Positions 1 to 4,160 of a stretch of DNA of 4,160 nucleotides are shown here, piece by piece. Under the pieces are notes generated by a model that had not been told where the DNA came from, made no database searches, and saw only the letters and a program-made list of their open reading frames with translations. Every line of letters begins with the position of its first letter. Within the stretch, counting starts at the first letter, position 1. The DNA is from a virus (taxonomy: Duplodnaviria > Heunggongvirae > Uroviricota > Caudoviricetes), in the IMG/VR virus record IMGVR_UViG_2778261122_000002, positions 1-4,160 of that record; one strand, written 5' to 3'. Position numbers and translations under genes: made by a program.

Positions 1-327
1 TCAAATAAGTGGTTTGCTGCCTAATTTCATTTTCTGGCGACCAACACAAGTCACACCCATTTCACTGCGTGGCTTGCTGTACCATGTGCGCTGATTCTTG
101 CGCTCAATACGTTGCAGGTTGCTTTCAATCTGTTCGTGGTATTCAGCCAGCACCGTAAGGTCTATCGGATTCAGTGCGCTTTCTACTCGTGATTTCGGTT
201 TGCGATTCAGCGAGATAATAGGGCGGTTAACTGGTTTTGCGCTTACCCCAACCAACAGGGGATTTGCTGCTTTCCATTGAGCCTGTTTCTCTGCGCGACG
301 TTCGCGGCGGCGTGTTTGTGCATCCAT
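1..327 (-). CDS. N: Antitermination protein N (lambda-type), 108 aa
   Basis: Minus-strand ORF; the internal Met at 327 starts MDAQTRRRERRAEKQAQWKAAN, the arginine-rich motif of lambda N. SD-like AGGAGA lies just upstream on the minus strand (+ strand 332-337); stop TGA is the complement of 1..3. The ORF-track 134-aa version uses an upstream in-frame Met at 405 and is probably over-extended. Confidence 0.93.
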   Translation of the reverse strand: MDAQTRRRERRAEKQAQWKAANPLLVGVSAKPVNRPIISLNRKPKSRVESALNPIDLTVLAEYHEQIESNLQRIERKNQRTWYSKPRSEMGVTCVGRQKMKLGSKPLI

Positions 328-485
328 CTGGATTCTCCTGTCAGTTAGCTTTGGTGGTGTGTGGGAGTCGTAGTCCTGAACGAAAACACCCCGCGATTGG
401 CGCATTGGCAGCTAATCCGGATTCGCACTTCCGGCCAATGCTTCGTTTCGTATCACACACCCCAAAGCCTTCTGCTTTGAATGCT

Positions 486-515
486 GCCCTTCTTCAGGGC
501 TTAATTTTTAAGAGC
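486..515 (-). promoter_or_regulatory. nutL N-utilisation site (boxA + boxB hairpin)
   Basis: Minus strand reads GCTCTTAA (boxA, + 508-515), spacer, then GCCCTGAAGAAGGGC (boxB, + 486-500), a 5-bp stem with a purine-rich loop. It lies in the pL leader upstream of N, as in lambda. Confidence 0.8.
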
Positions 516-555
516 ATCACCTTCATGGTGGTTAGTGCGTCCTGCTGATGTGTTT

Positions 556-584
556 AGTATCACCGCCAGTGGTATTTATGTCAA
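556..584 (-). promoter_or_regulatory. pL promoter
   Basis: On the minus strand: -35 TTGACA (+ 579-584), 17-bp spacer, -10 GATACT (+ 556-561). The surrounding sequence matches the classical lambda pL (GGCGGTGTTGACATAAATACCACTGGCGGTGATACT) and is oriented toward N. Confidence 0.88.
558..574. promoter_or_regulatory. oL1 operator (17 bp, cI/Cro binding)
   Basis: TATCACCGCCAGTGGTA: a 17-bp site with the consensus lambda half-site TATCACCGC, overlapping the pL -10. Confidence 0.9.
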
Positions 585-598
585 CACCGCCAGAGATA
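582..598. promoter_or_regulatory. oL2 operator
   Basis: CAACACCGCCAGAGATA: a 17-bp lambda-type operator overlapping the pL -35. Confidence 0.88.
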
Positions 599-601
599 AT
601 T

Positions 602-618
602 TATCACCGCAGATGGTT
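602..618. promoter_or_regulatory. oL3 operator
   Basis: TATCACCGCAGATGGTT: a 17-bp lambda-type operator, 3 bp from oL2. Confidence 0.85.
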
Positions 619-773
619 ATCTGTATGTTTTTTATATGGATTTATTTTTTGCAGGGTTGTGTGGCTTGGGAGGTGATCGAGAGATCTGAATTGCGATGTA
701 TAGTGAGTTGTATCTATTAATTTTCAAATAAATACAATTGGTTATGTGTTATTGGGTGAAGGGGATCGTGAGG

Positions 774-802
774 CAAAGAAAACCCGGCGCTGAGGCCGGG
801 GC
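774..802 (-). terminator. Intrinsic terminator downstream of the rex-slot gene (timm-like)
   Basis: On the minus strand, stem CCCGGC, loop CUCAGC, stem GCCGGG (+ 783-800), followed by UUUUCUUUG. It sits 8 bp past the stop of the 810..1745 gene. The sequence GTGAGGCAAAGAAAACCCGGCGCTGAGGCCGGG matches my recollection of lambda timm. Confidence 0.72.
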
Positions 803-809
803 AATAAAG

Positions 810-1745
810 TTATTCTGCGTCAATATCTTCTACGGTTAGTAGAGGGTGTACCTTATCAAGCAATTGGATGAAATCTTCATAAGTATCGCTTGCTTGCATG
901 AGTGTTGTTACCCCTGTAAGTCTCTTTTGAAGAAGACCATATCCAGTTCCCTCTGATAGAAACTGATGCATTTTTGCACCTGCCTTTTTTGCTTTTGCTC
1001 TTTCTTCCTTTAGCGCATTTCTTAGCTCTGGTGCCATGCGGTCATAAGTTATGTTATTCACAAGATGACCAAAGTATTGCGGTCTCCGCATGTTTGCTTT
1101 GAATGGGACTCCTCTGAGTCTACATAACTCCTCAAAGAATTCTGGCGGATATGTGCTTACCCATGGTCGCATTTCTTTAGCGATGAATTGCTCAAGGAGT
1201 TTTGCCAGTTCATCGCGCTCTCGTTCTTTTTGGTATCCAGTCGCTTCATCAACGAGCGCAACGGCGCCAACTCTAGCTAGAGCTTTATAGAGCGCTTTGG
1301 CTTTTGCAGCTGTATTCAAGTGATGCTTTTGTCGTAGGGCTCCATCCCTCTCAGCATCTGTCCATGCCTCGCAAAGCGCTGGTAGCATAGTAACGTCAAT
1401 GCCATAAGCGACACCTGCACCTGATGTATTTTTATATACAATTGGTTCTGCTAGCGCTTCTCTTAGTTCATCAGAAATATATGGCTGAAGCTCATTTGCT
1501 TGGAGAACATATGGTAATTGACCTGGCTTCCCATTTGGTACCCATCTTGGCATTTTTGAGCCAACAGATACACCGAATGTTTCTGCCAATCCATTTGCAC
1601 CTTGCATTGAAACCACTCTGCGACCATCAGGCAAAACAGCACAAGAAACACCTGTCGCCATTAATCCTGTGTGAGTTGGCTTTGGAGCTGATCTAACGAT
1701 TGCTGACATTGCTGCTGCTTTTTGAGCTCGTTTTTTAGTATCCAT
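810..1745 (-). CDS. Hypothetical protein (311 aa) occupying the rexAB-equivalent slot; function unknown
   Basis: Long uninterrupted minus-strand ORF. The first ATG is at 1745 (MDTKKRAQKAAAMSAIV...), preceded by GGGGGA; the ORF-track start at 1802 is a TTG and less likely. Stop TAA is the complement of 810-812. The product is soluble-looking with a basic N-terminus and an acidic C-terminal tail, with no obvious transmembrane segments and no Walker A or HNH motif visible by eye. It is neither RexA (279 aa) nor the membrane protein RexB by size and composition. Confidence 0.8.
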   Translation of the reverse strand: MDTKKRAQKAAAMSAIVRSAPKPTHTGLMATGVSCAVLPDGRRVVSMQGANGLAETFGVSVGSKMPRWVPNGKPGQLPYVLQANELQPYISDELREALAEPIVYKNTSGAGVAYGIDVTMLPALCEAWTDAERDGALRQKHHLNTAAKAKALYKALARVGAVALVDEATGYQKERERDELAKLLEQFIAKEMRPWVSTYPPEFFEELCRLRGVPFKANMRRPQYFGHLVNNITYDRMAPELRNALKEERAKAKKAGAKMHQFLSEGTGYGLLQKRLTGVTTLMQASDTYEDFIQLLDKVHPLLTVEDIDAE

Positions 1746-1772
1746 AAATCCCCCATATGCTTGGTTATGGTG

Positions 1773-1802
1773 ATGATAGCTTATTTCAAATAAGCAGGGC
1801 AA
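1773..1802 (-). promoter_or_regulatory. Candidate sigma70 promoter for the rex-slot gene
   Basis: On the minus strand: TTGCCC (+ 1797-1802), 18-bp spacer, TATCAT (+ 1773-1778), about 25 nt upstream of the ATG at 1745. Found by eye only; the surrounding AT-rich DNA offers several alternatives. Confidence 0.25.
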
Positions 1803-1958
1803 TGGTAGCTAAATCATTAATTAGCTACAAAATGCATCATTTTTATTTATCTCATTGATATGTATATATTTATCGATAAAATATTTTTAGCTGTTCTGTG
1901 ATTAAGCTAAATATTAATGCTAATTAATGCGTTAGCACAATGTGTGGATCACGACCAA

Positions 1959-1985
1959 TAAAAAAGGCCGCACTTCTGTGCGACC
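1959..1985 (-). terminator. Intrinsic terminator immediately downstream of cI
   Basis: On the minus strand: GGUCGCAC, loop AGAA, GUGCGGCC (8-bp stem with one G-U pair, + 1966-1985), followed by UUUUUUAUU. It begins 5 nt after the cI stop codon. Confidence 0.68.
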
Positions 1986-1990
1986 TTTCA

Positions 1991-2707
<717 letters not shown>

Positions 2708-2710
2708 TTA

Positions 2711-2739
2711 AATCTATCACCGCAAGGGATAAATATCTA
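2711..2739 (-). promoter_or_regulatory. pRM promoter (cI maintenance promoter)
   Basis: On the minus strand: -35 TAGATA (+ 2734-2739), 17-bp spacer, -10 TAGATT (+ 2711-2716). Transcription would start at or near the cI ATG. Confidence 0.85.
2715..2731. promoter_or_regulatory. oR3 operator
   Basis: TATCACCGCAAGGGATA: a 17-bp lambda operator. Confidence 0.9.
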
Positions 2740-2754
2740 ACACCGTGCGTGTTG
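2738..2754. promoter_or_regulatory. oR2 operator
   Basis: TAACACCGTGCGTGTTG: a 17-bp lambda operator overlapping the pR -35. Confidence 0.9.
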
Positions 2755-2780
2755 ACTATTTTACCTCTAGCGGTGATAAT
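2752..2780 (+). promoter_or_regulatory. pR promoter
   Basis: -35 TTGACT (2752-2757), 17-bp spacer, -10 GATAAT (2775-2780); it drives cro and cII. Confidence 0.9.
2762..2778. promoter_or_regulatory. oR1 operator (variant)
   Basis: TACCTCTAGCGGTGATA: a 17-bp operator overlapping the pR -10. It differs at one position (A at 2769) from the canonical lambda oR1 TACCTCTGGCGGTGATA as I recall it. Confidence 0.85.
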
Positions 2781-2795
2781 AGTTGCATGTACTAA

Positions 2796-3005
<210 letters not shown>

Positions 3006-3012
3006 ATAACCC

Positions 3013-3044
3013 CGCTCTTACACATCCCAGCCCTGAAAAAGGGC
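3013..3044 (+). promoter_or_regulatory. nutR (boxA CGCTCTTA + boxB hairpin GCCCTGAAAAAGGGC)
   Basis: boxA at 3013-3020 and the boxB stem-loop at 3030-3044, just downstream of the cro stop. The rho-dependent tR1 region would lie between here and cII (3045-3120) but cannot be delimited by eye. Confidence 0.8.
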
Positions 3045-3104
3045 ATCAAATTAAACCACACTTATGGTGTATGCATTTATTTGCATACATTCAATCAATT
3101 GTTA

Positions 3105-3146
3105 TCTAAGGAAATACTTACATATGGTTCGTGCAAACAAACGCAA
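3105..3146 (-). promoter_or_regulatory. pRE-type promoter with CII binding site (TTGC-N6-TTGC)
   Basis: The minus strand reads TTGCGTTTGTTTGC (+ 3133-3146), the CII recognition repeat flanking the -35, overlapping the start of cII, with an AAGTAT-like -10 at about + 3110-3118. The arrangement is as in lambda pRE and is oriented toward cI. Confidence 0.55.
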
Positions 3147-3417
3147 CGAGGCTCTACGAATCGAGAGTGCGTTGCTTAACAAAATCGCAATGCTTGGAAC
3201 TGAGAAGACAGCGGAAGCTGTGGGAGTTGATAAGTCGCAGATCAGCAGGTGGAAGAGGGACTGGATTCCAAAGTTCTCAATGCTGCTTGCTGTTCTTGAA
3301 TGGGGCGTCGTTGACGACGATATGGCTCGATTGGCACGACAAGTTGCTTCAATTCTCACCAATAAAAAACGCCCGGCGGCAACCGAGCGTTCTGAACAAA
3401 TCCAGATAGAATTCTGA
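3124..3417 (+). CDS. cII: CII transcriptional activator, 97 aa
   Basis: MVRANKRNEALRIESALLNKIAMLGTEKTAEAVGVDKSQISRWKRDWIPKFSMLLAVLEWGVVDDDMARLARQVASILTNKKRPAATERSEQIQIEF matches lambda CII. The ORF-track start at 3064 is an upstream extension; the ATG at 3124 gives the native 97-aa length and has a purine-rich SD-like stretch (TAAGGAAA, 3108-3115) upstream. Confidence 0.95.
   Translation: MVRANKRNEALRIESALLNKIAMLGTEKTAEAVGVDKSQISRWKRDWIPKFSMLLAVLEWGVVDDDMARLARQVASILTNKKRPAATERSEQIQIEF
3364..3388 (-). terminator. oop-type intrinsic terminator, antisense within the 3' end of cII
   Basis: On the minus strand: GCUCGG, loop UUGCCG, CCGGGC, then G and UUUUUU (+ 3364-3388). This corresponds to the terminator of the lambda oop antisense RNA. 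Whether an oop RNA is actually made here is uncertain because the promoter region is altered (see findings). Confidence 0.5.
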
Positions 3418-3449
3418 GGTCATTACTGGATCAATCCACAGGAGTAATT

Positions 3450-3611
3450 ATGACAAAACGTCGTAAGAAATACCAGGAAAAAGAAGAGATTCGACACCCT
3501 GATTCACCTGAGGGATTAGTGGTAGCCGCAGCAAATAACAGGGCGTTCGCAGAGCGCCTTGTTGGTGTTTACAGACTAGCCAAAGCAGGAGTGAAACATG
3601 GGCGTCGTTAA
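3450..3611 (+). CDS. Small basic hypothetical protein (53 aa) at the cII/O junction
   Basis: ATG at 3450 with SD GGAGTAA at 3441-3447; translation MTKRRKKYQEKEEIRHPDSPEGLVVAAANNRAFAERLVGVYRLAKAGVKHGRR; stop TAA at 3609-3611, 14 bp past the O-like ATG. The start codon and RBS are those of lambda O, but the coding sequence diverges after the second codon, so it may be a genuine small gene or an ORF created at the recombination joint. Confidence 0.4.
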   Translation: MTKRRKKYQEKEEIRHPDSPEGLVVAAANNRAFAERLVGVYRLAKAGVKHGRR

Positions 3612-4160
3612 GTTAGCTGATTACAGGCCTCAACTGGAGGTCGTGGAGCATCGCGTGGCAGATACCGAAGATGGTTTCATGCGCGTTGCTAACGAGATTA
3701 CCGACAGTCTGCTGATGGCTGATTTAACCGTCCGGCAGTTGAAGGTGATGCTCGCTATCATGCGCAAGACATACGGATTCAATAAGCCGATGGATCGACT
3801 CACAAACACGCAGATAGCAGCCATGACAGGTATTCATCACACTCATGTTTGCGCTGCCAAGCGCCAGCTTATTGAGCGTAAATTCCTCATTGCTGATGGC
3901 GTGAAAATCGGAGTGAACAAGGTGGTTTCTCAGTGGATTATCCAGGACAGCTTAACATTAGCTAAAACAGCTAATAAAACATTAGCCAAGTCGGCTAATG
4001 GGTATAAGCCAAGTCAGCTAAACACAAAAGACAATATACAAAAGACAATAAATACAAATACCCCCTTACCCCCTAACGGGGGCGGCGATGGGCAGGTTAA
4101 ACCTGAACGTCGCAAGGCAGAACGAATCGACTACGAATCCTTCCTGAACGCCTACAACAC
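3598..4160 (+). CDS. Replication initiator, lambda O-like (5' partial; continues beyond window end)
   Basis: ATG at 3598 with SD AGGAG at 3586-3590; the frame stays open to the window end (187 codons). MGVVKLADYRPQLEVVEHRVADTEDGFMRVANEITDSLLMADLTVRQLKVMLAIMRKTYGFNKPMDRLTNTQIAAMTGI... aligns with the lambda O N-terminal domain (lambda: ...DLTKRQFKVLLAILRKTYGWNKPMDRITDSQLSEITKL), clearly homologous but divergent. Iterons and an AT-rich ori lie inside the coding sequence, as in lambda O. Confidence 0.88.
   Translation, partial: MGVVKLADYRPQLEVVEHRVADTEDGFMRVANEITDSLLMADLTVRQLKVMLAIMRKTYGFNKPMDRLTNTQIAAMTGIHHTHVCAAKRQLIERKFLIADGVKIGVNKVVSQWIIQDSLTLAKTANKTLAKSANGYKPSQLNTKDNIQKTINTNTPLPPNGGGDGQVKPERRKAERIDYESFLNAYN
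3957..4022. repeat. ori iterons: three 19-bp palindromic repeats on a 23-24 bp period inside the O-like gene
   Basis: ATTAGCTAAAACAGCTAAT (3957-3975), ATTAGCCAAGTCGGCTAAT (3981-3999) and ATAAGCCAAGTCAGCTAAA (4004-4022). Each has dyad symmetry (TTAGCY...RGCTAA); a possible degenerate fourth copy lies around 3945-3956. Confidence 0.7.
4023..4061. other. AT-rich DNA-unwinding-element-like segment of the putative ori
   Basis: ACACAAAAGACAATATACAAAAGACAATAAATACAAATAC, containing a tandem CAAAAGACAATA repeat (4025-4036 and 4039-4050), immediately followed by a GC-rich block CCCCCTTACCCCCTAACGGGGGCGGCG (4062-4088). This iteron, AT-rich, GC-rich order mirrors lambda ori. Confidence 0.5.

Follow-up and report, generated by a model that had tools for sequence, protein, structure and literature searches.

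The stretch of DNA analysed here, hereafter the window, comprises positions 1 to 4,160 (4160 bases) of IMG/VR virus record IMGVR_UViG_2778261122_000002 and is the immunity region of a lambdoid phage. Between the repressor gene cI and the terminator timm, where phage lambda carries rexA and rexB, it harbours a single gene of the P63C family, which encodes a protein of 311 amino acids (aa) and is accompanied by a terminator, a predicted promoter and operator-like palindromes of its own. The same block of DNA recurs beside a different immunity module in another phage. The features that frame the exchange are as follows.

Positions 1-327, minus strand: N gene (Pfam N36).
Between N and the hairpin at 783-800: PL/OL region.
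Positions 783..800, minus strand: timm-type intrinsic terminator hairpin, found by a terminator scan, folding at -12.4 kcal/mol and aligning with lambda 35807-35824.
Positions 810..1745, minus strand: P63C-family gene, 311 aa from an ATG, intact and the only long open reading frame (ORF).
Positions 1962..1989, minus strand: intrinsic terminator right after the cI stop codon, with a 12-bp stem followed by a U-run, found by a terminator scan.
Positions 1990..2018, minus strand: cI 3' end, the right recombination joint; the same remnant lies beside the cassette terminator in two other IMG/VR loci, L020 and L006.
Positions 1991-2704, minus strand: cI, a lambda-type repressor (HTH_3 and Peptidase_S24) with 97.5% nucleotide identity to lambda.
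Beyond cI in feature order: cro, cII, a 53-aa ORF and the start of an O-type replication gene.

In blastn comparisons with lambda (J02459), two colinear blocks enclose the unrelated DNA: lambda 35062-35824 matches window 26-800 at 93%, and lambda 37226-38693 matches window 1990-3457 at 97.5%. The first-pass annotation of this sequence had read both flanks as lambda and the hairpin at 783-800 as a counterpart of timm, and both readings are borne out. The lambda interval that was swapped out (35825-37225, 1401 bp) begins at the stop codon of rexB and ends one base short of that of cI; because lambda is annotated with rexB at 35825-36259, rexA at 36275-37114 and cI from 37227, the ends of the blastn blocks make the stop codons of rexB and cI the exact points of exchange. 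The DNA swapped in (window 801-1989) measures 1189 bp, which is 212 bp shorter and in keeping with an initial estimate of about 200 bp, and blastn found no similarity to lambda 35825-37225 in the window. Some 245 bp of noncoding DNA separate the 311-aa ORF from cI. Identity to lambda had been said to resume a few bases beyond the cI stop codon, but CCAAACGTCTCTTCAGG represents the last codons of cI, whose product retains the lambda C-terminus (...PEETFG), and identity therefore resumes at the stop codon itself and not beyond the gene.

As in the window, mosaic imm-lambda phages have kept cI, OR, OL and timm while the DNA between cI and PL/N has been swapped. This particular insert is absent from the phage collection that was searched: megablast of positions 700-2000 matched the first 100 bases only, that is, the timm flank. 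The wild imm-lambda phage records HK542, HK244, mEp332 and mEp234 match at this flank and lack the cassette, and blastn and megablast agree that canonical lambda does not carry the sequence either. The lambda timm is annotated as 'terminator' in imm-lambda records EF120456-60. In the window, the equivalent hairpin at 783-800 is predicted to end the P63C transcript and forms the left recombination joint of the cassette.

The encoded protein matches Pfam model PF10546 (P63C) over residues 183-269 (profile positions 1-90 of 93) with 81.6 bits (cut-off 26.1; E=6.6e-23), and what had been offered as a weak impression of P63C likeness thus proved correct. This is the sole Pfam match of the protein; phrog_2384, of unknown function, matches residues 4-306 (E=6.2e-106), and an identical protein is present in public data (P0001). 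No RexA or RexB Pfam domain was detected in the 311 residues, in agreement with the earlier view of one unrelated, non-Rex gene in the rexAB slot. The ATG at 1745 was preferred to a TTG start that would lengthen the product to 330 aa, on the basis of homologue N-termini (MD... start) and the Shine-Dalgarno sequence; a purine-rich block occupies the Shine-Dalgarno position in loci L008 and L100 as well.

The product, of approximately 35 kDa, can be divided into a basic N-terminal tail (residues 1-22, isoelectric point 11.2), an acidic alpha/beta N-domain (approximately 23-135), a helical region with the motif VDEATGYQ..R (residues 165-175) and the Pfam P63C domain. As had been surmised along with the basic N-terminus, it appears to be soluble, the maximal Kyte-Doolittle mean over 19 residues being 1.08, with no transmembrane segment. 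The AlphaFold2 model (predicted local distance difference test score 78) consists of a basic N-terminal helix, a confident alpha/beta domain at about 23-135 and a helical C-terminal half, with confidence dropping after about residue 170. In an alignment of 41 family sequences, with identity down to 37%, residues D166, E167, T169, G170, Q172 and R175 are invariant, as are scattered Pro, Tyr and Arg residues in the Pfam domain. Searches of NCBIfam and Rfam found nothing. Profile searches, in short, placed the protein in a family, but structural ones were not informative: among solved structures the best match to the family profile had E=0.86, and no significant or informative structural neighbour was seen. 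In BFVD, the lone match of note from outside the family, second best in the search, is a Bro-N protein (E=0.017, not significant), which along with other hints, likewise short of significance, may point toward DNA-binding folds of the KilA-N/Bro-N class. Pfam signals for Bro-N, KilA-N, ANT or P22_AR were not found in any of the 41 family members, even at E<=5.

Upstream of the P63C gene, the cassette contains the following control features in addition to the terminator at 1962-1989.

Positions 1749..1754, minus strand: Shine-Dalgarno sequence GGGGGA, 3 nt upstream of the ATG, read from the sequence.
Positions 1773..1802, minus strand: predicted sigma-70 promoter of the P63C gene, TTGCCC-18-TATCAT (promoter scan, 9 of 12 matches).
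Positions 1805..1828, no strand: proximal operator-like palindrome GTAGCTAA-N8-TTAGCTAC, directly adjoining the -35 hexamer and recovered as pairs I11 and I1 of the repeat search.
Positions 1854..1861, no strand: conserved noncoding block ATATCAAT (minus-strand reading), invariant in the window and five Enterobacter cassettes.
Positions 1919..1936, no strand: distal operator-like palindrome GCTAA-N8-TTAGC (repeat search pair I1 and pattern count).

The terminator behind cI folds at -18.5 to -20.4 kcal/mol (z = -5.5), and its stem is kept in the Enterobacter cassettes. In lambda, rexAB is co-transcribed with cI, and the cI-rexA interval has no terminator-like site. The terminator at 1962-1989 belongs to the inserted module and is predicted to insulate the P63C gene from PRM/PRE transcripts. 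Although the first-pass annotation correctly assigned the gene to the rex position, the presence of a strong terminator and a separate control region means that it is not a simple continuation of the cI operon.

The terminator is followed by approximately 215 bp of DNA with 30% GC, in which two 18-bp palindromes of the form GCTAA-N8-TTAGC are found at 1808-1825 and 1919-1936, 111 bp apart, the two 18-nt sites being 89% complementary (pair I1). This pattern was found in every cassette copy checked (L001, L006-L010, L020/L021), with the distal palindrome perfect in Escherichia coli copies and degenerate in Enterobacter copies. The promoter position, too, is kept in cassettes whose proteins are 62-81% identical: the aligned position reads TTGACG-17-TAGAAT (10 of 12 matches) in the Providencia cassette L100 and TTGCTG-17-TACATT in Enterobacter, the latter seen in the alignment and lying under the scanner threshold. 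The noncoding part of the window cassette is just 52-54% identical to that of five Enterobacter cassettes, the invariant blocks being the terminator stem, both proximal half-sites and the ATATCAAT block. The proximal half-sites have remained unchanged although synonymous sites are saturated between the same cassettes. A plus-strand promoter for an antisense RNA (TTGATA-16-TAAAAT, 1855-1882) was considered and rejected because neither its -10 element nor its spacing is conserved in the Enterobacter cassettes. A predicted promoter and two predicted terminators thus flank a gene that is absent from relatives at the same joint, and on this anatomy the insert at 801-1989 can be classed as an autonomous accessory ('moron') cassette.

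Comparison of IMG/VR loci provides evidence that the cassette moves. Locus L020 contains the cassette (window 758-2018) at 99.4% identity within a different immunity module, in which the S24 repressor and Cro differ from those of the window and are accompanied by a P22-type N, sieB and an Nmad5 protein. On the left, L020 shares window 758-800 along with the cassette; on the right, a remnant of about 30 nt of the lambda-type cI 3' end stands between the stop codon of the resident repressor and the cassette terminator. In Enterobacter locus L006 the cassette has Bro-N, rexB and rexA genes close by in an accessory island, with no repressor adjacent, and the cI-end remnant has again been kept. Because L020 and L006 both carry this remnant, the joints can be placed at timm and the conserved 3' end of cI. 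In four further Enterobacter contexts the cassette follows three different cI alleles, always with a spacer of 256-258 bp. At least one transfer between heteroimmune phages appears, from the near identity of the copies, to be very recent.

The distribution of the gene in E. coli is narrow. Two of 5,426 complete genomes carry it, at 99.9% identity, and both belong to the bloodstream lineage ST131; RefSeq labels the product in these genomes 'P63C domain-containing protein', and its gene is flanked by N and a LexA-family (cI) gene. It is absent from lambda and from more than 1,600 E. coli genomes that share the flanks.

Several side observations were made in these loci. The L006 island (5700-9500, at the end of an Enterobacter prophage) combines the P63C cassette, Bro-N, rexB, rexA and dinI, and adjoins tail-fibre and P22 immI-like (Arc, P22_AR_N) genes; rexAB and P63C are therefore able to coexist in one prophage, outside the cI slot. 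To the left of the N gene of L020, sieB and the adjoining Nmad5 (nucleotide modification associated domain 5) protein occupy 5711-7083. The Enterobacter phages L007-L010 possess a conserved minus-strand ORF of 65-69 aa between the P63C gene and N (approximately 6978-7281), which has no Pfam match and no counterpart in the window. An S24 gene upstream of the P63C gene in L100 was considered as a cI remnant and rejected, since it encodes a different S24 protein (33% over 72 residues).

The gene is under strong purifying selection. Between E. coli-type and Enterobacter copies, whose proteins are 81% identical, the proportion of nonsynonymous differences (pN) is 0.13 and that of synonymous differences (pS) about 0.8, at which synonymous sites are saturated; among the Enterobacter copies pS is 0.06-0.08 with zero amino-acid changes. 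The reading frame is intact in all copies, and the first-pass annotation's caveat that the ORF could be a pseudogene finds no support.

Among E. coli genomes sharing the flanks, the gene alternates at the same joints with rexAB and other cargo, as had been anticipated. The occupants include rexAB, a BstA-C-domain or KilA-N protein, HicA with DUF1902, PIN, NYN, DUF1828 with a hypothetical protein, an SDH Clp-fold protease, pairs of hypothetical proteins and, in some genomes, nothing. These alternative occupants appear to be mostly of defence or toxin type. In the E. coli matches H124-H127 the slot is near-empty: about 1940 bases of query are matched by a span of about 660 bases of the record, in which cI alone is annotated. 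Mosaicism at this site is not new, as the cI-N hotspot of lambdoid phages has been published (Degnan et al. 2007, as cited in PMC8585504), and experiments have proven that BstA of prophage BTP1, encoded at the cI-N position, acts by abortive infection (Owen et al. 2021, PMC8585504). The P63C occupant is a new and rare entry in this known hotspot, drawn from a known but uncharacterised family. That the slot is mosaic was already on record, as were the P63C family and this gene's RefSeq annotation; what is new is the cassette's own terminator with its predicted operators and promoter, the heteroimmune transfer, and the occurrence of palindromes upstream of family members at large.

The P63C family is large, with at least 2,243 clusters at 50% identity (E<=1e-3), and ranges over phages of Proteobacteria, Actinobacteria and Firmicutes and streptococcal satellites. 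Among the best 150 representative matches, most align from residues ~5-35 through ~300 in one stretch, and about a tenth start at ~70-110 or stop at ~230-255. Relatives in named phages (ST933Wp35/L0095 of 933W, SPN9CC_0019, and gp5 of Burkholderia phage DC1) are similar over their full length, with 30-39% identity at 86-96% coverage, and share the P63C domain and the DEATGYQ motif. The window protein lacks the longer N-terminal tail (GGxARA...AxARW) of most P63C members. Like the window gene, SPN9CC_0019 of the Salmonella phage lies directly after cI, but it encodes 409 aa, overlaps the end of cI and is not insulated.

In the window, L001, L007-L010, L020 and L021, the family gene is directly downstream of a prophage repressor gene; at 16 of 76 IMG/VR loci it directly follows an S24 repressor gene on the same strand, the gap being always 175-600 bp. 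Other positions are the nin region of 933W beside roi, the neighbourhood of the DC1 integrase, sites between early-left genes, and tail-region islands. No conserved partner gene was found across the family loci.

Palindromes upstream of the gene proved to be a property of the family. In 60 non-redundant 150-bp regions upstream of IMG/VR family members, perfect inverted repeats with a spacer of at most 12 were counted and compared with dinucleotide shuffles. Arms of at least 8 were found in 35% of regions (5% of shuffles), of at least 9 in 25% (1.6%) and of at least 10 in 12% (0.5%), an enrichment of approximately 7-fold across the family. Some of these repeats are GC-rich terminators; most are AT-rich and lie 35-90 bp before the start codon. 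The half-site classes that recur are TGCAAGCA, TGCACGT, TTAGCAT and TAGCTAA. The TGCACGT class is represented by the repressor-adjacent locus L051 and by repeated loci that share 933W-type identity and span (38%, residues 21-311), while the TAGCTAA class is found at the rex slot in two types of immunity region, as well as in islands at a prophage end and among Providencia tail genes. Enriched as they are, and moving together with the gene, the palindromes suggest that the protein binds DNA sequence-specifically and regulates its own gene; recognition of its own upstream palindromes by the P63C protein would be the simplest reading. Upstream of the P63C gene of L027, a 55%-identical homologue, there is a perfect LexA-box-like palindrome, TACTGTATATAAATACAGTA, at a distance of about 168 bp, which hints that some family members or their neighbours may be under SOS control.

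Domain fusions and remote similarities provide further clues. In three relatives of 420-460 aa (P0183, P0204 and P0242), the P63C-family body is joined at its N-terminus to a zinc ribbon of the IS1595 transposase type; in P0177, a DUF1214 fragment takes the place of the zinc ribbon. The C-terminal domain of DrmE from the DISARM defence system (PF24957) is matched below threshold by 3 of 41 relatives, which align in a common register to profile positions 80-149; the best match reaches E=6.8e-4 and 19.8 bits, where the cut-off is 27. No PF24957 match was obtained with the window protein. The PF24957-like stretches of P0065 (residues 248-318) and P0073 (248-316) correspond to window residues ~222-292. 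This likeness may be due to chance, or may tie the family remotely to a component of a defence system whose function is unknown.

Two systems invite comparison with the cassette. Lambda rexA-rexB occupies the same position, from timm to the cI stop codon, and both rexA-rexB and the cassette are dispensable accessory cargo of an imm-lambda prophage. Rex, however, combines a sensor with a multi-pass membrane protein and is not preceded by a terminator-like site after cI, whereas the cassette encodes one soluble protein without Rex domains behind a strong terminator and its own predicted promoter region. The resemblance to BstA lies in the arrangement: a single protein of about 300 aa with a two-part architecture, encoded directly downstream of the prophage repressor in the cI-N hotspot, with a short DNA element on the 5' side of the gene, which in bstA is aba and in the cassette the palindromes. 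The N-termini also have a similar-looking beta-beta-helix start, hhalign pairing ...CAVLPDGRRV.. with ..MGVLNDGTPY.., and a BstA-C protein fills the same slot in other imm-lambda E. coli prophages. There are differences as well: aba relies on direct CCCGCC repeats (PMC8585504) as opposed to the AT-rich palindromes of the cassette, and Owen et al. presume that bstA uses the repressor promoter (PMC8585504), whereas in the window a terminator intervenes.

Taking these observations together, we tentatively favour, as the most probable of the readings considered, an insulated moron that encodes a lysogen-expressed, autoregulated DNA-binding protein and serves as a single-protein exclusion or abortive-infection system directed at incoming DNA. 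Recombination at the cI 3' end and timm would have swapped rexAB for the cassette. The terminator at 1962-1989 would end the cI transcript, and the cassette's own sigma-70 promoter would then drive the P63C gene, with the transcript ending at timm. The soluble product would bind palindromes of the TAGCTA type in a sequence-specific manner and thereby autoregulate, so that it could be made in the lysogen independently of cI. It would act on the DNA of an incoming phage, at replication or transcription, and bring about superinfection exclusion or abortive infection. Such a system would be BstA-like in logic rather than RexAB-like, with no ancestry shared with BstA. We count in favour of this reading the zinc-ribbon fusions, the defence- and toxin-type neighbours in the slot, the adjacency to a repressor and the precedent of BstA; what makes a defence role plausible is the association with this company in the slot.

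A number of observations weigh against it. Homology to the BstA-type protein of the slot was rejected, as hhalign of the family profile against that BstA-C protein gave a probability of 1.9% over 27 columns, and the NCBIfam BstA-C model has no match in the window protein. No defence model in PADLOC-DB 2.0.0 was matched at E<=1, and no phenotype tied to P63C was found in the literature. Expression in the lysogen is not guaranteed, because the terminator uncouples the gene from cI, and many homologues are in lytically transcribed positions or other islands (933W nin, tail, integrase). The palindromes, finally, could be bound by another factor.

The protein might instead regulate the life cycle of the phage, as a member of the antirepressor/Bro/KilA/Ant class that tunes its own lysis-lysogeny decision or early transcription. 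P63C is said to have been defined, by Iyer, Koonin and Aravind in 2002, within the Bro-N/KilA-N domain-shuffling network. Antirepressor-type neighbours are indeed found at several loci, namely roi (933W), Bro-N with P22_AR_C (L016-18), Bro-N and P22_AR_N/Arc (L006) and Arc (L100); the second-best BFVD match is the Bro-N protein, and operator-like palindromes suggest tight control. Yet the 41 members examined are devoid of the corresponding Pfam signals, the slot is dispensable, being empty in some imm-lambda prophages, and the cassette passes unchanged between heteroimmune phages, which is hard to square with a factor tuned to one repressor. We regard this role as somewhat unlikely. Rather improbable, in our estimation, is a transcription factor for lysogenic conversion acting on host genes such as stress, virulence or metabolic regulons. 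An autonomous cassette with its own predicted promoter and operators would suit such a factor, as would a family that appears to bind DNA sequence-specifically and the confinement of complete E. coli carriers to two ST131 bloodstream-lineage strains; the neighbouring cargo of the slot, however, is toxin- or defence-like, and a family spread across phages of three bacterial phyla and satellites is unlikely to share a conserved host-specific regulon as its target.

The invariant acidic and polar VDEATGYQ..R motif, found in members down to 37% identity, raises the alternative of a nucleic-acid enzyme (a nuclease, recombination or modification factor) with an active site formed by D166-E167...Q172...R175/E191, in which the N-terminal tail or zinc ribbon merely tethers the protein. 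The IS1595-type fusions and the weak DrmE likeness would agree with this. Against it, no likeness to a known nuclease or recombinase fold or profile was found, and the motif falls in a helical region where model confidence declines after about residue 170; we assign the enzyme a low probability, and since it overlaps with a defence role it would not exclude one. That the ORF is a decaying passenger, or was mis-called and has no function, is hardly credible: rarity in E. coli would fit, but the frame is open in every copy, pN is low against a saturated pS, the homologues are full-length and colinear across the clusters of the family, and the upstream regulatory blocks are conserved. The selection analysis effectively refutes this explanation.

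A bolder extension of the exclusion hypothesis would make P63C a large unrecognised family of single-gene anti-phage effectors of prophages and satellites, all autoregulated DNA binders whose palindromes double as operator and aba-like self-immunity decoy; we think this unlikely. A sharper and frankly speculative version takes note of the replication origin. Inside the O-type gene, window 3958-4021 contains three 17-bp palindromes TTAGC-N7-GCTAA, presumably origin iterons, and 12 of the 22 GCTAA/TTAGC pentamers of the window are concentrated in two 200-bp stretches, the iterons and the cassette operators. The TAGCTAA-type sites resemble these iterons, and the protein might block the replication of competitors from that origin. 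Against this, the cassette and that type of origin coexist in the window, L020 and L007. The TTAGC-N7-GCTAA origin belongs to a common lambdoid O-type, present also in SPN9CC (L004) and other phages; the same iterons were seen in L007, L012 and L013. A strict link between cassette and origin was rejected, given that L012 and L013 have the origin without the cassette and L001 and L008-L010 the cassette without the origin; the iterons are thus a property of the O type.

Anti-phage genes (RexAB, BstA) are proven to reside between cI and N in lambdoid prophages, in DNA that is transcriptionally privileged in lysogens. With the window, a rare occupant joins them, and it belongs to a very large family of phage proteins for which no phenotype, solved structure or mechanism was found. 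The cassette is compact, at 1.2 kb, and offers experimental handles in its two defined palindromes, the invariant DEATGYQ motif and two natural ST131 hosts. If the protein proved to be a defence factor or a DNA-binding regulator of a new type, that result would annotate upwards of two thousand sequence clusters in one step; should it be inactive against phages, the content of the rex slot would not be all defence.

On the other side of cI, the 53-aa ORF (3450-3611, plus strand) between cII and O matches phrog_1331, of unknown function (E=1.4e-37). Similarity to lambda stops at 3457, and in the ST131 relative L001 another small gene takes this place; the region of the 53-aa ORF is a second mosaic joint of the window.

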